From: Malacoraja senta
Lineage: Eukaryota
Reading direction: 5' to 3'
Assembly: GCA_038087875.1 (NCBI GenBank)
Contig: CM075990.1
Location: 9,302,001 to 9,366,000 of the forward strand
Length of the DNA stretch: 64,000 bases
The notes beneath the pieces are model-generated. The model saw only the letters and a program-made list of their open reading frames with translations, did not search any database and was not told where the DNA came from. Below, piece after piece: positions 1,019 through 64,000 of the stretch. The stretch's first letter is position 1. The number at the start of each line of letters is the position of its first letter. The translations under genes were made by a program, and so were the position numbers.

Positions 1019-1213
1019 TGTTTTGATATCTATCTGCTTATAAAATAAGTAAACTAGTACATTATATACAGAGAAAGATGGCTGCACACACACTCATATT
1101 GGAATAAAAAACAGGAATGATTTATTTCCAAGTCATAGTTCACTGACTGATTTACTGAGCATGTGCGAGAATTAGTACAGCTCATACGCATAAATTACAT
1201 GGATATCGTCACA
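1019..1213 (-). repeat. 3' LTR (195 bp)
   Basis: Matches 6394-6545 and lies next to the PPT. Confidence 0.93.
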
Positions 1214-1429
1214 TCCTTTCCGTTTTGACATCTTGAGATTACATTTCCAACAATCCAAAAACAAAGTAAACTTAAACACTTTTTTTAATACTAAACCGTA
1301 GTAATATGGTTTAACTTAACAGAATAAAACTGTTCTGTCTTATTTCACAATTTCAATCATAGTCACACTTGTGACATTTCAATAACGTAAACTAATGTTC
1401 ACATGCTTTCTTCTCATAAGCAAGTAGGT

Positions 1430-4400
1430 ACATCACAGCAAAACACTTTTCTGGCGGTCTGACAACTCTACCTGCCCTAGTCTTTGTGATGGTGTTTCTT
1501 TCAGAAATATCTTTCTTTTCAGTAGGTACATTCTATGCATCACTTCTAGTTTCTTCTCTTGTGTCACTGTTTTTGTTTAGATTTCTCCGTGTTAAGTTGC
1601 ATCTTGTTCTGGTGATGCATGCTGTGTTGGTATTTTCCATGTCAGCTGAGGTTGCAAAGGTGTCCCAGTCTTTTCCACGTCTGGTGGTTTCTCTGGAGTT
1701 ATGTGTGGAGGTAGTTCTCCGGTCTCCTTCAGATCCACTTGATTACTTCGGATTAGAAGTCCTGACTCTCTCGACTTCGTATGATCTCTTATCCAGTCGT
1801 CTCTGAACTGTTGCGCTCTGCCATCTCTGCCATATAGGGTTTGAGTCTAATGGCATCACCTTCTTCCAGGATTGGCAGATCCTTGGCATGTCGGTTGTAG
1901 ATTTTTGACTGTTTTCCTTGCAAATCCTTCATCTTTTTCCTCTCTTCTGTGAGTCTCAGCACCACGTAGTTTGAGGAGGTTAGATGTAGTTGGAAGTGTC
2001 ATCCTTGTTCTCCTACAATGTAGTCTTTGTGCAGGACTACTGTTCAATCCTTGCGCATGGGTGTTGTGCAATTCCAGTATTGCCATGTAATCATCTGCCT
2101 TGGAGTGATTGGTTTTCTTCAGCACTCGCTTAGCTCCCTTGACTGCCGATTCCACCTTATCGTTAGCCTGGCTATGTCTTGGAGAAATTGTGTAGTGGTC
2201 AAATTCCCATTTCCTGGTAAATTTGGCAAACTCCTCTGATGAGAACTGTGTCCCGTTGTCGCTTACCACAGTGCTGGGAATTCCGTATCTTGCAAAGTGG
2301 CTCTTGAGTTTCACAATGATTGTCCTGCTGCTCGGGTCGTACAGTCTGGCTATCTCCCAGAAATTATATAGATAGTCCACTGTGATTAAATAGTGCTTTC
2401 CCTCAAGCTCAAACATATTGGTTCCCACTTTCTCCCATGGTCGATCTGGGAGGTCATGGGGCATCAGTGTTTCTTTCTGATTCTGTTGTTCATACGTCCA
2501 GCAGGCTTCACAGTTTGAAATGAACTGTTTCACATCAGGGTTCATTCCGGGCCAGAAAATGCATTCTCTATCTGGTCTGAGGGTTCCTTCCACTCCCAGG
2601 TGAGAGGTGTGGAGTGTCCCCTTCATATCTCAACGTAGAGTGACAGGAATTACAACTCTCTCTCCTCTGAATACTAGGCCGTCTTGCATACTCAATTCGT
2701 CTCTGACGTTGAAGTACGGTTGTGCTGCCTCTGGAACTTCTGCCTTGTGATCTGGCCATCCATTTTGGATTACTCTCTTAACTGTTTGTAGTGTTTCGTC
2801 TTCCCTGGTGTGGTCTTGGATGCGTTTGACCTTGTCCTCTTCCATGCTCAAGGACTCAACTACGTTGACATCAGTGAATCTGATTGATCCTGTGGTGTCA
2901 GGGAGGTATGCTCGGGAGAGCATATCTGCTAGATGCATGTCTTTTCCCTTTACACCCTTGATCTCTATGTCGTAGTGTAGCATCCTTATCATCAAGCCCT
3001 GGAGATGTCTTGGTGCTGTATGCAGAGACTTTTTGACTATGACTTCCAATGGCTTGTGGTCACTCTCAACGATCACTCTCTGTCCATAGGTATACTGATG
3101 GAAGCGCTCGAGTGCAAACACTATTGCTAGTGCCTCCTTTTCGATCTGAGCATGTCTCTGCTCAGTTAGCGTCAATGCTCGACTCACATAGGACATTGGT
3201 TGTCCCTTCTGCATAAGTGTTGCACCTAGACCTGCCTTGATTGCATCACATTGTATGGTCAGCTGTTCGTCTGGTGTGTAGTACGCCAGGATAGGTGCCA
3301 TTGTCAACAGCTCCTTGATCTTTGACATTGCCATGTCATGTTCTGATGACCATTCCCACTCTGCTTCTTTGTAGGTCAATCTCCTCAAAGGCTCAAATGT
3401 GTCTGACAACCTTGGCATCCGGTTTAGGCCACAATCTGTAATTATATGTCCTAGAAATGTGATACACGTACCGACTTCTTTCGGTTCAGCTTGATGCTTC
3501 TGTCTCTGTATCGCTGAAGAAGATCTTGCAGTCTTGCATCGTGATTTCCTTCTGCATCTTCTCTGGTGTCCCCTACTCCGAATAGGATGATGTCATCTGC
3601 AACACATTCCACTCCCTTTAATCCTTCTAGGGCTTGTTGCAGCTTCTTCTGGAAGATCTCTAGACTTACTTTCAGTCCAAATGGCAACCTCTTCCAGCGA
3701 TATCTCCCAAAAGGGGTGTTCATGGTTGTTAGGAAACTGCTCTAGTTCGCAGTGGAGATATCCTGACTTCAGATTGAATTTGGAGAAAATCTTCGCCTTG
3801 GACAGCTCAGGGAGTACATCCTCTATGACTGGTAGTCTGTGGATCTCCCTTTTCAGGACTTTGTTGAGGGGTCTAGGATCTATGCAGAACCTCAACTTTG
3901 TGCTGTCCTTTTTCTCCGTAACGACCTGCTTGCTACACCATTCAGTTGGTTCTTCGACTTTAGACAAGATGTCCTGTTCGACCAGCTTCATGAGACCATT
4001 CATGACCTTCTCTTTCATGGCTACAGGTACCGGCTATGCCGAACACTGTGATGGGGTCACATCCTCCGTCCTGGTTACCAACTTGACCATGCCGGGCAGT
4101 CTCCCAGGTCTTTCGTCGTCAAAGACATCTTTGTATCTCCTGAGTAATGAGCCAGCCTCGCTAACAGCATTCAGGCTCTTGAAGTTCTCCTAGTTCGCGG
4201 CCAGATTTGAATTTTTTGAAATAATCGCCGGAACCACTTTCGACCATTAGGGAGACTGACAAAAACCTCCAGGAACCGCACGGAAACCTTGGGTGGGGCG
4301 CAAAGTCTCCATAGGTTTCCGTTCAGGTTTCCTAAGTGGGACAGGGACATTAAGGTGATTTTCTCTCGTCTAATGTCCTCTTTGTTGGGTACAAAATGCT

Positions 4401-4497
4401 TGGGAATCACATTAACACTGGCACCAGAGTCAATCTGAAACTTGATGGCTGCTGTGCCGACCTGCACATCAGCGAATAGGCTTCAAGAGGAATTGTT
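1430..4497 (-). pseudogene. pol: Gypsy pol (protease, RT, RNase H, integrase), disrupted
   Basis: Protease IDSGAS; RT LPFGL and VADDII; RNase H QCDA, IEKEALA and SDHKPL; integrase H-x3-H...CEAC, VDY, SDNG and VESAV. Confidence 0.95.
4191..4350. mobile_element. One-ended PIF/Harbinger-type MITE fragment inside the Gypsy protease
   Basis: Ends in CCTAAGTGGGACAGGGACA-TTAA, the same TIR core as the MITE at 15786-16224. The Gypsy frame resumes at 4190. Confidence 0.7.
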
Positions 4498-5245
4498 ATA
4501 CAATACAATACCGTTTATTGTCATTTGAACCTCAAATGAAGTTCAAACAAAATTTGGTTTCTGCAGTCATACAACCAGTAAAAAAAAAGACACACAATTA
4601 ACACAAACATCCATCACAGTGAATCTCCTCCTCACTGTGATGAAAGGCAAAGTCATTGTCTCTCCCCTGTTTTCCATTCTTCTCCCGATGTAAAAGCCCC
4701 CGGCGGGCGATGGCAAGTCCCGCGGCCCTTAAAGCCGCGCCGGGCGATGTAATGCCTTGCTCCAGGTCGTTTTCAACCCCGCAATTCGGGCGGGAGAAGT
4801 TACCATTGCGGGAGCTCCGAAAAGCGGTCTCCCACCAGGGACCAGCGAGTTCCCGATGTCACCGTCCACCAGGCCTGCGGCTGGAGCATCCGAAGCTCCG
4901 AAGTCGGGTAGCAGCTGCGCGCCACCACAGCTCTCTCCACGCTCCGAACCCGGCCAGCTCCACGATGGTGAGTCCACGGGCTCCGTGACTCACCCCAGGC
5001 CGATTCCGGTTGGAGGCCGCTCCACAGTGCTAGGCCCCAACAACAACGCAGACCCGACAGGGAAAAGGTCGGGTCCTCCGTACAGGGAAGAGATTTAAAA
5101 GTCCCCCCCCCCCCGCCCCCCACATATACACAGCTAAAAACAATATATAAACTACAACCAAACTATACACTCAAAAGGACAATTTTTTTTTTTTTTAAAC
5201 AGACGGACTGCAGAGGCCGCTGCCGCGAGGCGCCACCATGTTTCC
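4498..5245 (-). mobile_element. Non-autonomous non-LTR retroposon (GC-rich 5' part, LINE-type 3' tail) between gag and protease
   Basis: On the minus strand it begins GGAAACATGGTGGCGCC and ends AATAAA plus (GTATT)n. It has no coding homology and interrupts the Gypsy frame. Confidence 0.7.
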
Positions 5246-6119
5246 GGTTGCATTGATCTCAATGCAACTCGCCGACCCTGTGTCAGAAATGGACGTTGTG
5301 TCAGATGTCTCTACGACTTTGTGCAGGCCCCGTTTCTGCATGCTCTCCTTCCTCTGCTTGCAGCAGCAGGCAAAGTGGTTTTGACGTCCGCATCTGTTGC
5401 AGTCCTTCCCATACGCTGGGCATTCCACCTTCCTATGCTTGTGCGTCCTTGCACAGAACTTGCACTTTACTTGTCCCTGATTGTTCCTCTGCGAAGGAAA
5501 ATCAACCATCCTTTCCCTTGGTTTGCATCGTTCCACCTTGTCTATTGTCGGCTCTTCGCCGATGACCTGCATTCTTGCCGCTGTTACCTCCGAGGATCTA
5601 CATATGTCCGCAGTCCCCTGCAGTGTCAGATTCCTCTTTTGAAGGAGTGTCTTCATAGTTGACCAGTCTGCAATACCATTGACGATGTGATCTCGAATGA
5701 GGCTTTCTCTCAGGCACTCACAGAAGTTGCATGGTTTAGCAAGCTCCTTCAGCTCTTCAACATACGATTCAATGCTTTCCCCTGATTTCTGGTCTCATTT
5801 ATTGAAAAATAATCTTTCATAGGTTTCATTCATCTCTCCTATGATGATGGTAGACATCTTGTCGATGATGACTTTCACATCTGTCTCATCTGCTACCGTC
5901 TCGAACGTCAGGTCGATTTGCGTCTCGATTCTCACGCCCTCCAGTCCAACTATGCAGTAATACTGCTTTTTGATACTGTTTCTCCTTCTTATCCAGTTCT
6001 GTTATCACTGCATAATTTTCATACATTTGATTAAACATTTTCCATTCTTCCACCCTGTTCTCTTTGAGCTTTAGATTGGGTGGTGGAGCAACATGGAAAG
6101 ATGGACTGGTGTACGCCAT
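5246..6119 (-). pseudogene. gag: Gypsy gag (frameshifted) with CCHC zinc knuckles
   Basis: ORFs 5886-6119 and 5195-5656 contain CKFCARTHKHRKVEC and CNRCGRQNHFACCC. Confidence 0.9.
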
Positions 6120-6393
6120 TTTGAAATATCAGCGAATTCCCTCGCTCTTACTAGCTTATTTTATCTTTAAGCAGACTCTCATAGCATGTCGTTTCAAACT
6201 TCAACTCCCACAGCGCTGATTTACACGCAGCGTCTTATCTTTGTGTGTTCACTGACCTGCATTCATTCATGCATGCAGCTAGTCTGGTCGCTGAGCGTTG
6301 AAACATTGATTCCTGAAAGCTTTTCAAAGCATTTTATCTAATCATCATAGTGTCTATTTGATTCACAAATGTTCACTTTCACCACTGCCAACA

Positions 6394-6545
6394 TGTTTTG
6401 ATATCTGTCTGCTTATAAAATAAGTAAACTAGTACATAATATACATAGAAAGATGGCTGCACACACGCTAATGTTGGATTGATTTACTGAGCATGTGCGA
6501 GAATGAGTACAGCTCATATGCATAAATTACAGGGATATTGTCACA
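6394..6545 (-). repeat. 5' LTR (152 bp, about 43-bp internal deletion relative to the 3' LTR)
   Basis: Matches 1019-1213 and lies next to the PBS. Confidence 0.93.
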
Positions 6546-7422: not shown

Positions 7423-8495
7423 GGGTGGCACGGCAGCGTCAGAGATCCGGGTTCTATACCAACTACAGGTACTGTCTGTACGGAGTTTGTACGTTCTCCC
7501 CGTGACCGCGTGTATTTTCTCCGAGATCTTCGGTTTCCTCCCACACTCCAAGGACGTACAGGTTTGTAGGTTAATTGGCTTGGTATGTGAAAATTGGCCC
7601 AAATGTGTGTAGGGTGATGTTAATGAGAGTGGAGAGCATAAAGTTCCTCGGTGTGCAAATTACAGACAGCCTCACCTGGTCCAGGAACACCACTGGGACC
7701 GTCAAACGGGCCCATCAGCGACTGCACTTCCTGAGGAAACTAAAACAGGTCTCACTCCCCACCAACATCCTCAGGACTTTCTACAGGGGTACGGTGGAGT
7801 CTGTACTCACGTACTGCATAAATACGTGGTACTCCACCTGCAACTGCTTGGACAGGAAGGCTCTGCAGAGGGTAGTGAGGGGAGCAGAGAGGATCATTGG
7901 CATCTCCCTATCCTCGGTACAAGAACTGTTCTAGAGTCGCTGTCTGAAAAAAGCTCAGAGAATTGCTAAGGACAAACTGCACCCCCTCCACATACACCTG
8001 GATCTCCTGCCATCAGGCAAGAGATATCGCAGCATCAAAGCCCGGACTACAAGACTGCTAAACAGCTTCCTACCATATGCTGTGAGGCTGCTAAACAGTC
8101 TGTACTCACAGTCACCTGATTCTGCGGCTTGGCACGGACACTTTAATAACTGGCACTGGCCACTTTAATAACTGGCACTCCCCACTCAAATCAGCTGCCC
8201 CCGACATGTTTATGATCGGTTTTACTGTATTTTAACGTTGTTGTTTTACCTACTTTTTAACTATTTATACTGTTCCATCAGGGACTGGATTGTTTTTAGT
8301 GTTATTATGTGTGAAATGTTTTAAATTTCATGTGCGATGCCTGGGAAACGTCTTTTCATTTTGCACTGTACAACTGTTGCTTGCAAGATGACAATAAAGG
8401 TTGATTGATTGATGCGTGGACTTGGTGGGCCGAAGGGCCTGTTTCCGCTCTATTTCTCTAAAACTAAAACTAAAAGCTAAACCTAAAACTAAAAC
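7423..8495 (+). mobile_element. HE1/V-SINE-like SINE split by a LINE insertion
   Basis: The 5' part (7423-7625) and 3' part (8413-8495, GGGCCGAAGGGCCTGTTTCC...(CTAAAA)n) align to the intact copy at 55078-55400. Confidence 0.85.
7625..8412 (+). mobile_element. 5'-truncated Rex1/Babar-type LINE
   Basis: RT C-terminus VESIKFLG...QRLHFLRKL...LLPSGKRYRS, followed by AATAAA and a (TTGA)n tail. Confidence 0.85.
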
Positions 8496-13192: not shown

Positions 13193-13293
13193 TGTTAGGT
13201 AGACAAAAAATGCTGGAGAAACTCAGTGGGTGAGGCCGCATCTATGGAGAGAAGGAATAGGCGACATTTCGGGTCAAGACCCTTCTTCAGACT
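13193..13293 (-). mobile_element. Penelope-like terminal repeat with hammerhead-like core
   Basis: Reverse complement reads AGT-CTGAAGA-AGGGTCTTGACCC-GAAATGTC. Confidence 0.75.
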
Positions 13294-13486
13294 GCTTACC
13301 AGATAATACGTTCTTTAAACCATTTACCAGAAAATATGTTCTTTAACTATAATTTTTAACATTGAATTGACCTCATTATGAATGCCCTATAATTAGCTAT
13401 CTTTCCAAGGCTAATTGAAATATACTACTGGGCAGATAAATGAACTATACATAACACAAGTGCTATAAAAGTGATGCCCCATTTTA

Positions 13487-14455
13487 CTACATCTCTGTCA
13501 TCCTATCAGCATTGTCTTTCATATTTGAGTTATCAGAATGAAAATCAGTAAGGTGTAGATTGATGGTATTGCTTTCATGCGGAATGTCTATAGGATCAAC
13601 AAGTTCAGCCGTTCTGCATGCATGCGCCGCGTCATCCAGCGATAACTCTGGCCGTCTCAAGAGCTCTGATCTGAGCTTTTGATCGGTGATACCATTCACT
13701 AAAATATCCCTCGTTAACTGATCAGTCAACTGATCCGCTGGCATTTCCTGAAATCGACAACGTTGGGCTAGATACATTAAAGAAGAAATATATGAGTCCA
13801 CTCGTTCCCCGGGAAGTTGACGACGAGAGAAAAACCTTGCCCTGTTCAAAATGTGATTTGAGGGCAGGTCACAGATCTGAGCCAGTTTACGCAGCAAAAC
13901 ATTAGGGTCAGTGGGAGACTCCGCCGGTGTAATTACCTGGTCATTGGCATCACGGATAGCCGGAGCATAACGGAATGTTCTGGATCGACGAAGGGCACCA
14001 GGTCCCGCAAGGTTGAGCAAGAGAGAGGCCTTAACAGCATCTGGTTCATTTCGGTGTACAATGTTTCTGAGATTCAGTAGATCGAGATAGACGTCAGACT
14101 TTGAAATGCGCGCTCCCTCCAGCAAGTGCTTGGCGCTTCTGACAGCGCGTTCAGCGAGTCCATTACTCTGTGGATACTCGGGACTGCTTGTGACGTGCTG
14201 GAAGTTCCATCGGTCGGCGAAAAGCTTGAACAAGTGGCTGGTGAACTGTGGACCATTGTCGGTTCTCAGAATAACAGGAATGCCATGGTCTGAGAAATGT
14301 CTTTTCAGCTTCCTGATGACCATCTCCGACGTGAGGGAGGTAAGTTGGTCAAGTTCAAACCAGTTGGAGTACGAGTCGACCAGAACGAGGTAGTGCTTAC
14401 CGCACCATTCGAAAATGTCCGCAGCCAGCGACGACCATGACAGTGCTGGTGGAGG
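13487..14455 (-). CDS. Chimeric stop-free frame: integrase DDE core fused upstream of a gag fragment
   Basis: 323 codons stop to stop. LVLVDSYS, TDNGPQF and NGLAERAV are joined at LRN/IVHRN to gag (SLLLNLAG...RDILVNGI). The first ATG is at 14323. Expression is unknown. Confidence 0.5.
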   Translation of the reverse strand, partial: PPPALSWSSLAADIFEWCGKHYLVLVDSYSNWFELDQLTSLTSEMVIRKLKRHFSDHGIPVILRTDNGPQFTSHLFKLFADRWNFQHVTSSPEYPQSNGLAERAVRSAKHLLEGARISKSDVYLDLLNLRNIVHRNEPDAVKASLLLNLAGPGALRRSRTFRYAPAIRDANDQVITPAESPTDPNVLLRKLAQICDLPSNHILNRARFFSRRQLPGERVDSYISSLMYLAQRCRFQEMPADQLTDQLTRDILVNGITDQKLRSELLRRPELSLDDAAHACRTAELVDPIDIPHESNTINLHLTDFHSDNSNMKDNADRMTEM

Positions 14456-14826
14456 TCACCACAATCCTCTCCCGTGCGGTTTTCACCTTCAGCCTCTCTG
14501 CCTCATCCTTCAGTTGAGGTAGGGGATGCTTGGGTCCGCACGCGTTCGGGCCGTGTTAGTAGACCACCAGACAGGTATGGCGAGTATGTTTAATATGCTT
14601 TTAATCTTTAGGGGGAAGGATGTAGATTGATGATGCATGTGAATCAATCACACTTAGCTAGCATCACTAACTCCACCCCATTATAACATTTATACTAACG
14701 CCCATTCCCAACACCGTTAGTTGAAGCAGCCAGGATGAACTGACAACACCTCGCTCTGTAATGCTGCCAAGTTAATGTGCTGATTAAAGATGTGTGTAAA
14801 TCTTATATGTTTTGAAGTGATTTACA
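13554..14826 (+). mobile_element. Rearranged Gypsy LTR element
   Basis: TSD TAAGG (13549-53, 14827-31). A 12-bp 5' LTR stub TGTAGATTGATG, inverted gag and integrase-core segments, then a plus-strand INT C-terminus (RTRSGRVSRPPDRY*), PPT GGGGGAAGGA and 3' LTR 14621-14826. Confidence 0.92.
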
Positions 14827-15785
14827 TAAGGTAAGACAGCTATAAAATATTCCCCCACCCCAAAGCTTGCGGACATTTCATTGCAAATTAATATTCAGCG
14901 GGGGCAAGGCATGATAGAATAACTAACCTGTCATACTGACACTCATTCAGTTAATTAAAATAGTGAACATCAAAGTTTTTTTCTGAGATTCTCGTGCAAT
15001 GACCTAATAAGCTTTAAAAAAAGTTCAATTTTTAAGATAGGGAATATCAATTTCCAGAAAAGCATATTCAAAGCACGCAAAGATACTGCTGAAAATAATT
15101 TTGTGTAGTGCCCTAAAGAAATCTCATTCTATGAAATAATAAATTAATAGGTCAAAGGAGGGTAAAATCTTGTAAGTAAACTTGTAATCTTGATAAAAGA
15201 AACAAATTGAAAAGCAAAGATTGAAATGCTAATACATTTAAATCTGCTCTGTGGCAACCCACAGATAAGGACATTTTTCATAGATGGCTGCCAGTTGCCT
15301 TTAAGGTATCAGTGTAAATGAAATTATTCAAATGAAGTCTGCATTAATCCCAAGGCTGAGCGAGAAAACTAGCACCTCCCAAACCAGTGACCAGTGGCCA
15401 CTGCCACCAGGAGGACAGTAGATGCTTGGTAACACTACCCTCTGCAAATTCCAATCCAAGTCCCAAATATTCTGATTTAGAAATATCTCCCTCTTCCTTC
15501 ATTATCCCTTGGATCTGGAATTCACTCCTCAAATGCTTTGTGGAAGTGTTTTCAGCAGAAGCAGTTTGCAAGACAGTGGCTCATCGCTATCTTCTCCAAG
15601 CCAATTAAAGATGGATAATAAATGCACTTGTTGAGTAAAATTTGTAAAACAGCCTATTATTCTATAAATTACAGTAGAAGGACAGCTCCTTGACAATTGA
15701 GAACCAAATAATAATTTGGTCATTGAGAATATAATCAGTGTGAACCAAAGATTACCTCCTTTGTTCCAATATGAAAGAAGTCTTA

Positions 15786-24339: not shown

Positions 24340-26150
24340 GTCATAGAATCATACAGTACAGAAGGAGGGTCCCTCCAAGATGCCCCATTTGCCCGCATCC
24401 CTCTAAACCTTTCCCATCAATGTACCTGTCTAAATGTCCTTTAAATCCTATTGTGGTACCAGCCTCAACTACCTCCTCTGGCAGCTTGTCCCATATACCC
24501 ATTACCCTCTGAGTGATAAAGTTGCTCCTTAGGTTTGTATTGACTCTTGCACCTCTCACCTTAAACATATGTCCTCTTGTTTTTAAATCACCAACCCTGG
24601 GTATAAGTCTGTCGCTTCCCCTCACAATTTTACACACCCCTATAAGATAGAATAGAATAGAATAGAATAGAAACTTTATTTGCCACACGACCAGGGTTGG
24701 TGGTAATTGGGTTCGGTACATGATGGTACACTGCTTTAGCACATTAACACTAACAACAATAATAATAAAGCACATCACAAATCACAAATCTCACCAACAA
24801 TACATAGTGCAAAAGAACAGACAAAAACCATAGACAAGACACTGTATACATCAAAGTCAAAAAGTTATTGGAGGGAATTAAGTGTTCTTATTGCTGAGGG
24901 GAAGAAACTGTTTTTAAAACGGGTGGATTTTGTAGCAAGTGACCTAAGGCGCCTCCCTGAAGGGAGAGACTAGAAAAGGTGGTTTGCTGGATGGGAGGGG
25001 TCCGAGATGATCTTTGTTGCCCGTTTTGAGGTACGTTGGAGGTAAATGGAATGGATTGAGGGGAGGGGAGAGTTGATGATCCTAGAGGCCTTGGAGACAA
25101 TGCGCTGTATTCTGTGTAGTGAGTGACTGTCAGTGTTTCCGTACCAGACTGTGATTGAGGAGGTGATGATGCTTTCAATGATGGATTGATAGAAGCGTAC
25201 CAGGAGGTGTTTGTGGACTCTGAACTTCTTGAGCTGTCTGAGGAAGTATAGGCGTTGTTGTCCTTTCTTAATGATGTGGTCAGCATTGATGTGCCATTTT
25301 AGATTATTGCAGATATAGGTGCCCAGAAACTTAAATAAGTTCGTGGAGGTTATGGGATGGGAGTTGACATGGACCGCGGGTTTGAGGTTTTGTTTGCGTC
25401 TGAAATCTATGATGGTTTCTAAGGTTTTTGAGGTGTTAAGCTGGAGGTTGTTTTCTGCGCACCATTTGACTGCGCTGTCCACTGTTTGATGGTATTGTGA
25501 TTCATTGTTGTCTGAGATGAGGCCAATTATTGTCGTGTCGTCTGCATATTTGAAAATTTTAACTGAGCTGCATTGGGATGTGAGGTTGTTGGTGTAAAGT
25601 GAGAAGAGCTGAGGTGACAGAACGCACCCTTGAGGGGCTCCTGTATTGATAGTCAGAGGGCTGGAGAGTTTTTCACCCACCTTGACTCTTTGTTGTCTGT
25701 TTGTAAGAAAATGTAAAATCCAATGGCACATGGCTAGGTGAATGCCCATGTCCAACAGTTTATTGTAGAGTTTAATTGGGTGTATAGTATTAAAGGCCGA
25801 GCTAAAATCTATAAACAAGATGCGTGCATAAGTGTTCGGTGATTCCAAATGATGTAGGGAGTAGTGAAGAGCTAGGTTGATAGCATCCTCCACAGACCGG
25901 TTGGCGCTGTATGCAAATTGAAAAGGGTCCATGATGGGGACAGTGTATGTTTTCAGATGGGTGAGGACTATGTGCTCAAAGGCCTTCATGGCAACTGATG
26001 TTAGTGCAACAGGTCTAAAATCGTTCAGACAGATCGACCCAAAGCTACTTGTGCTCCAAGGAGTGAAAATGCTAAGCAAGTGCAACCTCGCCCTACAGCT
26101 CAGCCCCTCAAGAGCTGGCAACATCTTTATAAATCCTTTCTGCACTCTTT
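24340..26150 (-). mobile_element. CR1/HER1 LINE split by a Rex-type LINE
   Basis: CR1 motifs at 26070-26150 (QKGFIKMLPALEGLS) continue at 24340-24645 (KTRGH.FKV...LPEEVVEAG). Confidence 0.8.
24646..26035 (-). mobile_element. Young 5'-truncated Rex1/Babar LINE with near-intact RT
   Basis: [33 protein letters not shown] and FLG motifs; (CTATT)n tail. The stop at 24970 is CAG in the sister copy near 63531. Confidence 0.92.
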
Positions 26151-30330: not shown

Positions 30331-31079
30331 CTCATAGGCTATTATGTTGGAAGCTGAAGTTTAGTCAATTAATAGAAATTGCAAGGGGTCTAGATTATTC
30401 GAAACATGTGGGCCATTACCAAATCTTTCAAAGCATTTCATAATGGTTGATGTTAGTTTAGTTTATTTTTATTCTTGTCATGTGCATATTTTGTCATGTC
30501 AGGTACAGTGAAAATAACTATTGGATGGTCGTCACTAGGACAGGTCGCTTTATTTTTCTTGGGGACTGGAATTATCCCCAGCAGGTATCCTTGAAGCAGA
30601 TGGAATCAGCTGACTGTTGAAGTGAGAAGTTGACGACCTGGTAAAGACTGTGGCCAGTTAATTGGTGCAAGATTTGAGAACCCAAAGATTCCATCCGGGT
30701 CAGCTACTTTCCGAAGGTTTACCCTTGTGAAAAGAGATTTGGCTATTGGCACTGGGCCAATGGCTGCAGAGCCAGCATGGGATGGGCGACGTGCCCAGGT
30801 AGAACTTTCTTTGCCTGCTGAACACGGGTGTAAAAGGCACTCTCATCTGATAGAGTTGCAAAGATGCAAAGATGCAAAAATGCACTTGGGGCCGTGGAAA
30901 TATACTGTAACAATTGCTTAACAAATAGATCCTGAAAATGAGGTTTGTCCTATGAGGAACAATTAATCAGACTGAATATGTCCTCAGAGTTTTGAAAAGT
31001 GAGAGGGAAATCTCAATAAAACATACAAAATTACTGCATGGCTTGACAGGAATGATATTCCCCTTGGGGTCTATCAAAC

Positions 31080-32243
31080 TGTAGATTGGTTATTTCCTAC
31101 TAACCAATTGTAGTGCTTGTTAGTAGTTGCTCCACCTAATATGCGATTCATATTATCAAGAGCTTGCCTACGCCATTCAGTATGAGTAGCTGCTAGGAAC
31201 TGTAATGTCCTGCAGACCGATGTGATTTTAATAAACATGTGTTGTATATGTGTTTGACTCGACTCATTACATGGTGTCACGGAGTGAGTCTTACCTACTC
31301 CGTTCACGTTTTTAATTTGTTTGTGTGCAAGTTATCTCTATCATGGCAAACTCGTCTCGCCGTCCTAGTCCTCTGATCATTGACTCTGACATTGCTGAAC
31401 ACTGGGTCAGTGTTTTCGAACGCAACTACATTCACTATGTTCGCATCGTTCATCGCAACGATCCTCCAAATGTACGTGCTTCTGTATTACTCAACCTAGC
31501 TGGCCCAGAGACAATGAAATGTGCCGACAGTTTTACATTTGAGCCTGCTGTTTTAGATGAGAATGGACAGATCCTAGTGCCTGCAGAGACGATTGATGAC
31601 CCTGCCGTCCTACTTGCAAAGTTCAGACTGTTGTGTGAGCTCCCCTCGAACTACATTATTGAACGTACCAAGTTTTATACTCGTATGCAACAGATTGATG
31701 AACCAATAGAATGTTTTATCAGCAACTTAAAACACATGGCTGCATGCTGCCAATTTTGTGATTTGTGCGATGAACTAATTTGTGACAAGATTGTTAGAGG
31801 TAAGCTTAATAACAAGTTAAGGGATGAACTGCTCTGTAGCACTGACCTGACCCTTAATCAAGTCGAGCACGCCTATCGGATTGCTGAGATAACATCTTCT
31901 CACACTATGTCTGTGATCTCTGGCCAGGTCTGCTCCTCAATGTCCTAATTGCAACTATTTTCATGTTATGGGTCGAGAGTTCTGTATTGCTTATGGTAAA
32001 ACCTGTAATTTCTGCAAGAAATCAAACCACTTTGCAAGATGTTGCTATTCCCGTGCGACTCAATCCGCCTCAAGGACGAGCTTGCACCTGTTACAACATG
32101 AGCTTGCTGATAACGAATACCAAGAGCCTGACTTGCCATCCTCCGCTCAGCTCTCTGAAAGTACAGATAACAGTTCAGCCATCCACTCTCTCCTCCCTTC
32201 CTCTAACGAGCAACTTGATATGTGTTTGACTCGACTCATTACA
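31080..32243 (+). mobile_element. Internally deleted Gypsy element (5' LTR, PBS, gag, 26-bp 3' LTR stub) inserted in a CR1 relic
   Basis: TSD CAAAC (31075-79, 32244-48); LTR 31080-31271; PBS TGGTGTCACGGAGT; 32218-32243 is identical to 31246-31271. Confidence 0.92.
31343..32217 (+). pseudogene. gag: Gypsy gag with CCHC knuckle, frameshifted near 31940
   Basis: MANSSRRPSPL...VLLNLAGP...; CNFCKKSNHFARCC. Confidence 0.88.
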
Positions 32244-32431
32244 CAAACCAAGGTCAGAATCTCAATATAAGAGGTCAGCCATTCAAGACAGAACTTTTTT
32301 TCACCCAGATAATAGTGAATCTTAAAAATTATCTACCCAGTGGTATTATAGGTCAGTCATTGGAATATATTCATGACAGGGATCAATTAATTTTTCGATA
32401 TTGAAGAAATCAAAGGACAACAAACAACATG

Positions 32432-47842: not shown

Positions 47843-49229
47843 GTTCAAGTTCAAGTTCAAGTGAGTTTATTGTCATGTGTCCCTGATAGGACAATGAAAT
47901 TCTTGCTTTGCTTCAGCACAACAGAACATAGAAGGCATTGGCTACAAAACAGATCAGTGTGTTCATATATCATTATATAAATATATACACACATGAATAA
48001 ATAAACTGATAAAGTGCAAATAACAGATAATGGGCTATTAATGTTCATAGTTTTGTCCGAGCCAAGTTTAATAGCCTGATGGCTGTGGGGAAGTAGCTAT
48101 TCCTGAACCTGGTCATTGCAGTCTTCAGGCTCCTGTACCTTCTACCTGAAGGTAGCAGGGAGATGAGTGTGTGGCCAGGATCGTGTGGGTCCTTGATGAT
48201 ACTGCCAGCCTTTTTGAGGCAGCGACTGCGATAGATCCCCTCGATGGAAGGGAGGTCAGAGCCGATGATGGAATGGGCAGTGTTTACTACTCCTTGTAGT
48301 CTTTTCCTCTCCAGGGCGCTCAAGTTGCCGAACCAAGCCACGATGCAACCGGTCAGCATGCTCTCTACTGTGCACCAGTAGAAGTTAGAGAGATTCCTCC
48401 TTGACAAACTGACTCTCCGTAATCTTCTCAGGAAGTAGAGGCACTGATGTGCTTTCTTAATAGTAGCATCAGTGTTCTCAGACCAGGAAAGATCTTCAGA
48501 GATGTGCACGCCCAGGAATTGAAAGCTCTTGACCCTTTCAACCATCGACCCATTGATATAAACGGGACTGTGGGTCCCCATCCTACTCCTTCCAAAGTCC
48601 ACAATCAGTTCCTTGGTTTTGCTGGTGTTGAGGGCCAGGTTATTGTGCTGGCACCATATGGACAGTTGCTCGATCTCTCTTCTGTACTCTGACTCATCCC
48701 CATCAGTGATACGTCCCACAACAGTGGTGTCGTCAGCGAACTTGATGATGGAGTTCGCACTATGACCGGCTACGCAGTCATGAGTATAGAGTGAGTACAG
48801 CAGGGGGCTGAGCACGCAGCCTTGAGGTGCTCCCGTGCTGATTGTTATCGAGTCTGACACATTTCCACCAATACGAACAGACTGTGGTCTGAGAGTGAGG
48901 AAGTCAAGGATCCAATTGCAGAGGGATGCGCAGAGACCCAGTTCTGCGAGTTTGGTAACCAGCTTGGAGGGGATGATTGTATTAAATGCCGAGCTGTAAT
49001 CGATGAATAACAGCCTGACATATGAGTTTTTGTTGTCCAAGTGGTCCAGAGCGGAGTGGAGGGCCAGCCAGATCGCATCCACCGTTGATCTGTTGTGGCG
49101 GTAAGCGAACTGCAGTGGGTCCAGGTTTTTGTCGAGGTAGGAGTTGATTTGCACCATGATCAACCTCTCAAAGCACTTCATCACCACAGGCGTTAGTGCC
49201 ACAGGTCGATAGTCATTGAGGCACATCAC
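47843..49229 (-). mobile_element. 5'-truncated Rex1/Babar LINE with uninterrupted 394-aa RT frame
   Basis: [36 protein letters not shown] 48045-49229; (CTTGAA)n tail. Confidence 0.93.
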
Positions 49230-50049
49230 TATTATACTATGTTAAATAGAGATGCATACTATAGTCAATACCACAAAAATAAAACACCAAAGATTAATGT
49301 CAATAATGGATGTCCTTTATGTTAAATGTTGAAATTGCTTCATTCCTATTTTCTAAAATCTTAAAAATGATAACATGTTGCAGTATGTCTATCGCAAGCC
49401 CTCTAGGATCAGATAAGCTTTTCTATTTGTAACATAAAGTGAAATGAACAAACGAGCACACGTTCAAATGTTGTATTGCCTCCCACAAAAGGTTCCACTT
49501 TAGAAATTGTGTTTCCAATGTATTAAATGTTCATTTTAAGAATGATATGCATTGTGTCAAAGTAGATTTATAATAATAGTTCTGATCTTTTTGCTTTTTT
49601 ATAAAGAGAGCTATTACAGACAGCTGGCACTTTTCTAATCTGCAATTTAATAGTATAACAAATTCTTCAGAAACCTTAAGTCAGATGCATATAATTCTGC
49701 TAATACAGAAGATTGCTATAAAGTTGAAAATTCCATACCAACTAAGGTTTTCAAATAAATTAAGGGAAGGTTGAAAAAATAAATCATCAATAGAAAATAA
49801 TCGGCATACTGGTGTAATTAAATTTCCACTTTTGCATACAAATACAATTTAATATTAAAAAGCCTCCAATTTAATTGTACCAATAAATTTGATGGTGTGA
49901 ATGCAGTTGTTAAAACAAATATAAATCCATGTATTCCAATTTAACTCCATCAAAGCAGATTATCCTAAACCGATTTTTTAAATTTCAAAAGAGCAGAGAT
50001 TTCCAAATTGCAGAGGCTGCATTGCTAGGAGTGGAGGAATATAGTGCAT

Positions 50050-55400: not shown

Positions 55401-55780
55401 AAAGTACAGCTCTGAGGGTCAACTACAGATTCAGCTTTCAATTGAGATGCACAACTGTAATCCTGCCCATTGCAGATGAATATAAAGATGCCAATGTTCA
55501 TTGCAGTGTAATTCTTGATATCCAGGTCAATATTTAACTCTTAATCAATATAGCTAAAACACATTTCTGGTCAATGTCACATTGTTATTTGTAGGTGCTT
55601 TTTCTGCATGCAGATTATCCGGCCACTTGCTATATTATATTTTGCTACAAAGAAAATGGAATAACTTGTAAAATTTGTCATAAAAATGCCAGACTACATT
55701 CTCATAGATTCATAATGCTAAACCGCATAGAAATGGGTCATTCAACCCACCACATCTACACCGACCATTTTGACTATCTA

Positions 55781-57384
55781 CAGTGGCTTGCAAAAGTATT
55801 CATACCCCTTGAACTTTTCCACATTTTGTCACGTTACAACCACAAACGTAAATGTATTTCATTGGGATTTTATGTGATAGACCAACACAAAGTGGCGCAT
55901 AATTGTGAAGTGGAAGGAAAATGATACATGGTTTTCAAATTTTTTTACAAATAAAAAACGGAAAAGTGTCGCGTGCAAAAGTATTCAGCCCCCTTTACTC
56001 AGATACCCCTAAATATAATCCAGTGCAACCAATTGCCTTCAGAAGTCACCTAATTAGTAAATAGAGTCCACTTGTGTGTAATCTAATCTCAGTATAAATA
56101 CAGCTGTTCTGTGAAGGCCTCAGAGGTTTGTTAGAGAACATTAGTGAACAAACAGCATCATGAAGCCCAAGGAACACACCAGACAGGTCAGGGATAAAGT
56201 TGTGGAGAAGTTTAAAGCAGGGTTAGGTTATAAAAAAATATCCCAAGCTTTGAACATCTCACGGAGCACTGTTCAATCCATCATCCGAAAATGGAAAGAG
56301 TATGGCACAACTGCAAAGCTACCAAGACATGGCCGTCCACCTAAACTGACAGGCCGGGCAAGGAGAGCATTGATCAGAGAAGCAGCCAAGAGCCCCATGG
56401 TAACATTGGAGGAGCTGCAGAGATCCACAGCTCAGGTGGGAGAATCTGTCCACAGGACAACTATTAGTCGTGCACTCCACAAATCGGGCCTTTATGGAAG
56501 AGTGGCAAGAAGAAAGCCATTGTTGAAAAAAAGCCATAAGAAGTCCCGTTTGCAGTTTGCCACAAGCCATGTGGGGGACACAGCAAACATGTGGAGGAAG
56601 GTGAGACCAAAATTGAAATTTTTGGCCTAAATGCAAAACGCTAAGTGTGGCGGAAACCTAACACTGCACATCACCCTGAACACACCATCCCCACTGTGAA
56701 ACATGGTGGTGACAGCATCATGCTGTGGGGATGCTTTTCTTCAGCAGGGACAGGGAAGCTGGTCAGAGTTGATGGGAAGATGGATGGAGCCAAATACAGG
56801 GCAATCTTGGAAGAAAACCTGTTAGAGTCTGCAAAAGACTTGAGACTGGGGCGGAGGTTCACCTTCCAGCAGGACAACGACCCTAAACATACAGCCAGAG
56901 CTACAATGGAATGGTTTAGATCAAAGCATATTCATGTGTTAGAATGGCCCAGTCAAAGTCCAGACCTAAATCCAATTGAGAATCTCTGGCAAGACTTGAA
57001 AATTGCTGTTCACAGACGCTCTCCATCCAATCTGACTGAGCTTGAGCTATTTTGCAAAGAAGAATGGGCAACAATTTCAGTCTCTAGATGTGCAAAGCTG
57101 GTAGAGACATACCCCAAAAGACTTGCAGCTGTAATTGCAGCGAAAGGTGGTTCTACAAAGTATTGACTCAGGGGGGCTGAATACTTTTGCACGTGACACT
57201 TTTCAGTTTTTTATTTGTAAAAAAATTTGAAAACCATGTATCATTTTCCTTCCACTTCACAATTATGCACCACTTTGTGTTGGTCTATCACATAAAATCC
57301 CAATAAAATACATTTACGTTTGTGGTTGTAACGTGACAAAATGTGGAAAAGTTCAAGGGGTATGAAAACCTTTGCAAGCCACTG
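55781..57384 (+). mobile_element. Tc1/mariner IR/DR-type transposon (Passport-like), 1604 bp
   Basis: TA TSD; about 213-bp near-identical TIRs starting [30 protein letters not shown] and SPDLNPIE motifs. Confidence 0.96.
56160..57166 (+). pseudogene. Tc1 DD34E transposase, inactivated
   Basis: The LWSD motif is lost by an inferred 13-bp deletion at about 56603 (frameshift), and there is a TAA at 56642-44. Confidence 0.92.
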
Positions 57385-57544
57385 TAATCCTTTTGGCCCA
57401 CATTAGGTATATATCTTTTGTTGCCATGCCTATTCAAGGGCCTGTCTAACTGATTCTTATACCCTAACTATGCCTCTCGTTATTTTATTTACCTCTATTA
57501 GGTTAGCCCTCAGCCCTCAGCCTCCCTTGCTCCATGGAAAACAA

Positions 57545-63204: not shown

Positions 63205-63968
63205 GATTTAGATAGATAGATAGATAGAATCTTTATTTGCCACACGACCAGGGTTGGTGGTATTTGGGTTCGGTACATGATGGTACACTGCTTTAGTCAC
63301 ATTAACACTAATAATAATAAAGTGCATCCATACCACATCACAAATCACAAATCTCACCAACAATACATAGTGCAAAAGAACAGACAAAAACCATAGACGA
63401 CACTGTATACATCAAAGTCAAAAAGTTATTGGAGGGAATTAAGTGTTCTTATTGCTGAGGGGAAGAAACTGTTTTTAAAACGGGTGGATTTTGTAGCAAG
63501 TGACCTAAGGCGCCTCCCTGAAGGGAGAGACTGGAAAAGGTGGTTTGCTGGATGGGAGGGGTCCGAGATGATCTTTGTTGCCCGTTTTGAGGTACGTTGG
63601 AGGTAAATGGAATGGATTGAGGGGAGGGGAGAGTTGATGATCCTAGAGGCCTTGGAGACAATGCGCTGTATTCTGTGTAGTGAATGACTGTCAGTGTTTC
63701 CGTACCAGACTGTGATTGAGGAAGTGATGATGCTTTCAATGATGGATTGATAGAAGCGGACCAGGAGGTGTTTGTGGACTCTGAACTTTTTGAGCTGTCT
63801 GAGGAAGTATAGGCGTTGTTGTCCTTTCTTAATGATGTGGTCAGCATTGTTGTGCCATTTTAGATTATTGCAGATATAGGTGCCCAGAAACTTAAATAAG
63901 TTCGTGGAGGTTATGGGATGGGAGTTGACATGGACCGGGGGTTTGAGGTTTTGTTTGCTCCTGAAATC
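63205..63968 (-). mobile_element. 5'-truncated Rex1/Babar LINE, sister of 24646-26035
   Basis: Near-identical to about 24660-25410; (CTAT)n tail. Confidence 0.93.
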
Positions 63969-64000
63969 TAGTTAAAATATTATGAAGTGTAATTGCTGTG

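Follow-up and report, generated by a model that had tools for sequence, protein, structure and literature searches.

The window analysed here, a 64,000-nucleotide (64-kb) stretch of Malacoraja senta DNA, contains a scrambled Gypsy element at 13554–14826 (1,273 bp), flanked by TAAGG duplications at 13549–13553 and 14827–14831. On the plus strand, the element reads as a 12-bp long terminal repeat (LTR) tip, inverted gag, an inverted integrase core, an integrase tail in normal orientation, a polypurine tract (PPT), and a full LTR. The tip (13554–13565, plus strand) is the U3 end of the 5′ LTR and is identical to 14621–14632. It contains the entire short terminal inverted repeat, 6 of whose 7 bases match the reverse complement of the LTR end, and inverted gag follows it directly, with no primer-binding site between them. 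The inverted gag segment (13557–14065, minus strand) corresponds to approximately residues 33–200 of the gag-pol polyprotein and has neither the start nor the zinc knuckle. Next to it, the inverted integrase catalytic-core segment (14059–14456, minus strand) carries D13, D66, and E102, which we take to be the catalytic triad on the basis of the D,D(35)E motif, and lacks the HHCC zinc domain and the C-terminal domain.

The remaining parts are in normal orientation. According to homologue comparison, 14457–14593 (plus strand) encodes the last ~45 codons of the integrase tail plus the stop codon, matching the final 45 residues of relatives' integrase C-termini. The PPT (14608–14620, plus strand) adjoins the complete 3′ LTR (14621–14826, plus strand; 206 bp, TG…CA), and other contigs start at 14621 after other flanks. 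An initial annotation of this DNA, made from the sequence, had described the TAAGG duplication on both sides, the retention of only 12 bp of the 5′ LTR, and the normally oriented integrase C-terminus followed by PPT and LTR, and we find all of these as described. It had also stated that gag and the integrase core were each inverted in place; the inversions are real, but "in place" hides large losses at the three junctions.

Features of a Ty3/Gypsy derivative are present (a TG…CA LTR, a target-site duplication of 4–6 bp, a PPT before the 3′ LTR), and those of an autonomous Gypsy element are absent (two full LTRs, a primer-binding site, an intact gag-pol). A search for 8-base primer-binding-site motifs stayed at chance level, with 60 matches vs 66 expected, and the 64-kb window held no tRNA or Rfam match and no second copy of the scrambled element. 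In its LTR ends, PPT, 5-bp duplication, gag, and integrase, the element resembles the Ty3/Gypsy elements of cartilaginous and bony fishes (K02A2.6-like gag-pol); unlike them, it misses protease, reverse transcriptase (RT), RNase H, the zinc domain, the primer-binding site, and the 5′ LTR, and two of its pieces are inverted. The best named protein matches are from Leucoraja erinacea, and identity to the best hits is 57–80%. TRIM and LARD elements have two LTRs and a primer-binding site, occur in many copies, are short and internally deleted, and need their parent's enzymes. The scrambled element is likewise short, internally deleted, and reliant on its parent's enzymes, but it is without two full LTRs or a primer-binding site and has one copy in the window.

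We estimated the size of the parent from homologue lengths and from the LTR-to-ATG distance of a relative within the window, that is, from lengths only. Judged by medians over 68 full-length homologues, the gag piece begins near residue 36, and the integrase piece corresponds to about residues 1012–1143; the closest integrase relatives carry ~221 residues beyond the core. On this estimate, the parent was ~4.6 kb long, and ~0.37, 2.4, and 0.53 kb were lost at junctions 1, 2, and 3, respectively, so that ~70% of a parent-sized element (~3.3 kb) is gone and ~28% of the length is kept. The losses comprise the primer-binding site and all of the 5′ LTR beyond the tip and, from the coding region, the start of gag and its zinc knuckle, protease, RT, RNase H, the zinc domain of integrase, and the greater part of its tail. 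Homologues P0124 and P0133 display the polyprotein order RT, RNase H, integrase, with RT missing from the scrambled copy. Pfam detected the integrase zinc domain in all three homologues with the core domain (3/3) and not in the scrambled element; a home-made HHCC pattern, which found only 3 of 68, was dropped in favour of Pfam. Longer and shorter protein relatives amounted to 1 of 1,553 and 2 of 192 candidates, respectively, none of them near-identical. The species carries the parent family in abundance, since the bins of the element have far more summed contig depth than the flanks, although this depth is not a copy number.

We compared the locus with read-derived contigs from 4 of 24 listed sequencing runs, namely X1 and X2 from the species and X3 and X8 from two other, related organisms. 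The X1/X2 organism shares ~0.8 of the window's words; both runs come from one study, and either may be the source of the window. X3 and X8 were the two runs used from among those with a share near 0.1. The depth of X2 is near 4, and the Logan contigs used are simplified graphs that drop rare variants. In X8, a contig joint (13551>14830) leaves out 1,278 bases, equal to the element plus one TAAGG, and record 17 of X3 goes from 13548 directly to 14827. The site is therefore empty in both related organisms compared (2/2), whose flanks diverge from the window by 4.4% (X3) and 4.7% (X8). Because the empty site equals the filled one minus the element and one TAAGG, the repeats are a true target-site duplication, and the event neither removed nor picked up host DNA. 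The element was inserted precisely, and its presence is lineage-specific.

In X1 and X2, a single contig runs from 13269 to 13586 with 0 differences to the window and at flank depth (31.2 and 3.8, respectively), and another contig begins at 14797 and continues into the right flank; no empty allele was seen among the X1/X2 contigs listed. The compared stretch included a high-copy repeat (13200–13294) that dominated the contig tables. Misassembly of a repeat could also give such a structure. No listed contig spans the whole stretch, and none of the pieces listed spans junction 2 or 3 (there are 136,518 further pieces and 1,108 further loose ends). But in each of two runs a single contig carries flank, tip, and inverted gag without a difference, contigs also contain the boundary between the LTR and the right flank, the empty site fits to the base, and the junction microhomologies are in register, which makes misassembly extremely improbable. 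The element differs from nearly all of the family depth at four or more positions (13846, 14499, 14529, and 14711, among 40 difference rows listed, with 279 further rows). Going by so few private differences among the rows listed, the copy looks young.

The three junctions were then considered individually. At junction 1, between the plus-sense LTR tip and inverted gag, the contigs of X1 and X2 both terminate at 13586. A unique flank that enters sequence shared from 13554 on would give a contig break at 13583; the end at 13586 instead means that words starting at 13554–13556 are unique and that sharing begins at 13557. The Leu-300 codon has its third base at 13556, and the gag homologue P0021 reads I-N-L at these codons. 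Contig end and codon wobble, two independent lines, both point to a 9-bp inverted overlap at 13557–13565, and a 9-mer from the 12-nt tip is expected by chance 0.07 times in 4.6 kb. The junction-1 contig has 21 letters to the right of 13565, under the 31-letter bridging rule.

Junction 2 (14059–14065, minus strand) probably comprises an overlap of ~7 bp, a length that we infer, which encodes Asn-Ile in the same frame in integrase and gag. Integrase-derived contig pieces halt at 14059 in three records (X3 record 19; X8 records 26 and 27), and of the homologues checked, 4 of 6 for gag and 6 of 9 for integrase have N-I at this place (14065–14060). The initial annotation had joined the two pieces as LLNLRN/IVHRNEP. 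They do join in frame, but the sharp cut between N and I does not hold, since the overlap at about 14059–14065 is common to both pieces. Junction 3, where integrase core meets integrase tail, lies at ~14456/14457, and integrase-core pieces end at 14456 in three contig records (X1 record 7, X2 record 15, X3 record 22). The microhomologies at junctions 1 and 2 are putative, deduced from contig ends, codons, and homologues. Searches with the LTR-start pattern in metagenome contigs and with the junction-2 pattern in viral contigs each returned 0 matches.

The initial annotation had considered that the copy might belong to a replicating non-autonomous family with this scrambled structure. Abundance of the parent family in the species would suit such a family, but in a normal cycle both LTRs are restored in full and a primer-binding site is required, and the element has neither two full LTRs nor such a site. 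Further, the unique-flank contig reaches 13586, past the 13583 break expected from a second copy, in both runs (2/2), and none of 107 listed homologues with both integrase and gag displays a direct integrase-to-gag join. With neither a complete 5′ LTR nor a primer-binding site, and with an unbroken junction-1 contig, the element is very unlikely to represent a replicating family, and we have no evidence for a new mobile family.

The locus displays a precise insertion with a 5-bp duplication in an otherwise intact site, with all pieces derived from the element and both tips correct. We consider it probable that microhomology-guided template switches in reverse transcription produced a linear cDNA with two correct tips, which was then inserted by integrase. 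PPT-primed plus-strand DNA would halt after ~12 nt and leave its template, and the last 9 bases of the tip would anneal to gag on a plus-sense template, the genomic RNA. RT would then copy ~500 nt of gag backwards, as antisense gag, switch at the 7-bp match to the integrase core, and copy ~400 nt of it. The extended strand would pair with minus-strand cDNA stalled ~160 nt past the LTR, and fill-in of both strands would yield a linear duplex with two correct tips, ready for insertion by the family's integrase. A mirror route, in which the minus strand jumps onto a sister cDNA and ends on plus-strand strong-stop DNA, would give an identical and indistinguishable product. Multi-step template switching had been among the earlier suggestions and, as a route that left two correct tips, is the best supported of them, given the microhomologies at junctions 1 and 2 and the empty orthologous site. 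Of the three outcomes that had been offered, a one-off accident is the fitting one: a member of a young, multi-copy Ty3/Gypsy family was probably scrambled in the particle and inserted once, dead on arrival. Having no 5′ LTR and no primer-binding site, the copy cannot replicate again.

In a different order of events, a full-length copy would have integrated normally, and two inverted pieces copied from that element or from a sister copy would have taken the place of most of it during later host repair, either microhomology-mediated break-induced replication or end joining by polymerase theta. A deletion-inversion-deletion with 4–10 bp of microhomology is a repair signature, and an intact duplication is expected here too; microhomology alone does not separate RT switching from host microhomology-mediated end joining (MMEJ). 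Deleted HTLV-1c proviruses offer a parallel: as reported in PMC13427564, 58 of 185 deletion junctions have 4–10 bp of microhomology, inversions occur in 1.9% of amplicons, junction-spanning ORFs occur in 75.8% of defective human-derived proviruses, and a mostly post-integration origin is favoured. But in our case no host base was lost or captured on either side, and all six breakpoints lie inside the element although the rearrangement spans ~4.2 of 4.6 kb. With random placement, such containment is expected in ~4% of cases and, if contained, a break within the first 12 nt in ~3%, both under a crude uniform model and the estimated parent length; each is unlikely for a process blind to the ends of the element. 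The copy also looks young (at least 4 private positions among the 40 rows listed), which leaves little time for later repair, and no unrearranged left end appears in either run of the species. We therefore judge repair after integration to be unlikely, although it is the strongest of the alternatives.

For HTLV-1, intact 6-bp target repeats have been taken to mean that the 5′ LTR was lost before integration (PMC6950816). The scrambled element shares with the HTLV-1 and HTLV-1c proviruses of these two studies an intact target duplication around a 5′-truncated genome, inversions, microhomologies, and junction ORFs. Those cases concern a somatic retrovirus in which the repeat abuts internal sequence, whereas the scrambled element keeps a true LTR tip.

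Autointegration had also been raised, as an autointegration-like cDNA that still integrated. Here an LTR end would attack its own cDNA to form an inversion circle, which would later enter the genome. Inversion circles are documented in particles of Ty1 and of Arabidopsis, and their hallmark is a processed LTR end joined to internal DNA with the LTRs whole (PMC7197481). Like the Ty1 and SISYPHUS circles of that report, the scrambled element has an inverted internal portion, which in those systems is made inside the particle; they are circles joined at LTR ends, and ours is a linear integrated copy with microhomology junctions. Both of its ends abut host DNA, junction 1 falls at LTR base 4–12, junction 2 is without LTR, junctions 1 and 2 both have inferred microhomology, and junction 3 has neither an LTR end nor a short internal duplication. 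With no junction using a processed LTR end and both ends spent on host DNA, autointegration appears very improbable.

Template switching before integration, the reading we prefer, has a close known counterpart in HIV-1. Premature second-strand (plus-strand) transfer is reported to delete most of the 5′ LTR of HIV-1; the start point lay upstream of the primer-binding site in 20 of the 23 large deletions obtained with LTR-spanning primers, and an integration complex is stated to require ~15 terminal bp (Hardy et al. 2025, PMC12657518). As in those proviruses, the break in our element falls within the 5′ LTR, before the primer-binding site, the 3′ LTR is intact, and a short U3 tip would have been enough for integration. 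The two cases differ in that the HIV-1 strand lands on minus-strand DNA, giving a colinear deletion, whereas here a landing in the opposite sense would give two inverted pieces and three junctions; moreover, unlike the HIV-1 proviruses, the scrambled element is a germ-line Gypsy retrotransposon. Provided that the rearrangement did precede integration, a Gypsy integrase can make do with ~12 bp of U3. Template switching is treated in PMC6894440 and PMC3187697, whose passages on the subject do not deal with inverted integrated copies, and a literature search, with most subscription papers outside it, returned no LTR retrotransposon that had integrated with a short 5′ tip and with two of its internal pieces inverted.

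HIV-1 RT is described as extending the PPT primer by 12 nt, pausing at +12, and removing the primer (PMC3185654). The 12-nt tip of our element agrees with this pause, but the enzyme is another one and the match may be chance, so we treat it as a lead only. More speculatively, and with rather low confidence, the tip could be the fossil of a pause ~12 nt into plus-strand synthesis by a vertebrate Gypsy RT, after which the released DNA primed on genomic RNA. If so, tip-truncated, duplication-flanked copies in fishes should cluster at one U3 length with 3′ microhomology, and genomes would record the initiation kinetics of RTs that nobody has purified. The same route would make in-frame domain orders, such as integrase before gag, that are absent from the normal cycle. 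A tip length that recurred genome-wide would make plus-strand initiation by vertebrate Gypsy RT testable from sequence alone.

An integrase-before-gag order is readable at the locus. According to the ORF list, a stop-free frame from integrase core to gag occupies 13487–14455 on the minus strand, with 322 sense codons plus a stop codon; the sense codons run from 14455 down to 13490, and the last 22, past gag, lie in the LTR tip, the target-site duplication, and host DNA. The initial annotation had reported this frame running out into host DNA, with the D-D-E triad ahead of gag and the first ATG after the first catalytic Asp, and both descriptions are borne out. Pfam rve matches residues 20–95 of the frame (E 1.5e-11), residues 132–297 match the gag of Gypsy relatives, one of them a further element of the window, a stop codon immediately precedes codon 1, and the first Met is codon 45 (ATG at 14323), after D13 and before D66 and E102.

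To judge the in-frame join, we counted the joins possible between integrase and gag through shared words. Those in phase made up 5 of 12 shared 7-mers and 21 of 57 shared 6-mers (0.36–0.42), which does not support the idea that coding microhomology strongly favours in-frame joins. A further 22 open codons are expected ~35% of the time. Since an in-frame join arises about 1 time in 3 and young coding pieces are free of stops, the long frame can be explained as a by-product.

We also looked for the fused order among relatives. The comparison covered 258 listed proteins (the best 120 of 430, 1, and the best 150 of 27,450), of which 146 match integrase only, 5 gag only, and 107 both. Among these 107, gag lies only before integrase in 93, and 14 have a gag stretch after the integrase stretch. 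The latter are 1,325–3,582 aa long with gaps of at least 89 residues between integrase and the later gag, and we read them as multi-element gene models; P0049 and P0057, considered as fused proteins, were rejected because their integrase alignments run on. Neither of two translations of the frame that were checked occurs in the protein collection searched. A Pfam scan of 150 of 187 frames (at least 62 codons, beyond position 6500) gave matches in 5, all read as mobile-element domains, and no host-gene domain was found in these 150 frames, a scan that short host exons would escape.

It had been suggested that the frame is raw material for a new gene. If it were used, an antisense-LTR transcript or splicing into a host transcript would yield an integrase-core/gag protein, for which the 322 open codons, a TATA-like word on the minus strand of the LTR, and pyrimidine-preceded AG sites on the minus strand (14606, 14508, and 14324) could provide the means. 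But the join is of a kind expected at 0.36–0.42 among young coding pieces without stops, a stop stands directly before codon 1, the first ATG comes after the first Asp, and the zinc and C-terminal domains are missing. Further, the site is empty in both related organisms compared (2/2), so that a kept orthologue, the criterion for a domesticated gene, is lacking. The absence of host-gene domains from the frames scanned and of either translation from the protein collection points the same way, and among the rows listed, the one private difference that falls within the frame sits at a first codon position. Use of the frame is therefore exceedingly doubtful: with an in-frame join expected about 1 time in 3, empty relatives, and no listed homologue with the fused order, there is no evidence for a new gene, and the frame looks like a by-product of the joined pieces.

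Taken together, the element most likely belongs to a known class, that of aberrant reverse-transcription products that integrated, and is a readable scar rather than a new gene. It provides a clean germ-line example of such a product that still integrated. Programs that search for pairs of LTRs overlook copies of this type, and the long ORFs that arise when young coding pieces are joined in frame can lead to such copies being taken for new genes. A second element, of a different Gypsy lineage, lies at 31080–32243 in the same window and has a full 5′ LTR, 26 bp of the 3′ LTR, and CAAAC duplications; tip-only Gypsy derivatives accordingly occur twice in 64 kb.

The gag piece of the scrambled Gypsy element (13557-14065, minus strand) carries five residues, in the region of 13713-13736, that most of its homologues lack. 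This insertion, a DQLT repeat, is also present in the homologous protein P0145, and a read-derived contig of the element's own Gypsy family aligns there without a gap. Because it is common to both, the insertion is a family trait.

A Gypsy element of a different lineage, whose gag is 44% identical to that of the scrambled element, was found at 31075-32248, with CAAAC duplications at both ends. It carries, in order, a complete 192-bp 5′ LTR, a primer-binding site and gag, after which all that is left of the 3′ LTR is its final 26 bp. It is thus a tip-only derivative, in which one LTR is cut to a short terminal piece, and a mirror image of the scrambled element, since here the 5′ LTR is complete and the 3′ LTR reduced. 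An older, decayed full-length Gypsy-like element lies on the minus strand at about 1019-6545, with a similarity of about 72% between its terminal repeats; it matches the integrase-core-to-gag frame of the scrambled element at 34% in gag and 41% in integrase.

The tail of a high-copy short repeat (13197-13294) lies 250 bp to the left of the scrambled element. Five copies of it occur within the 64-kb window, and it is also found at the empty site of the two related organisms.

Three LINE-type RT fragments were located at 7575-7931, 24973-26148 and 48048-49241. In two of them, a Pfam ALKBH8_N match immediately follows RVT_1, and therefore this model appears to match a LINE tail here. A 764-bp repeat pair with 96% identity (24652-25409 and 63212-63970) overlaps the LINE fragments. 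Further, terminal inverted repeats of 228 bp (95.6% identity) at 55779-57386 enclose two long frames, which resemble a Tc1 transposase.
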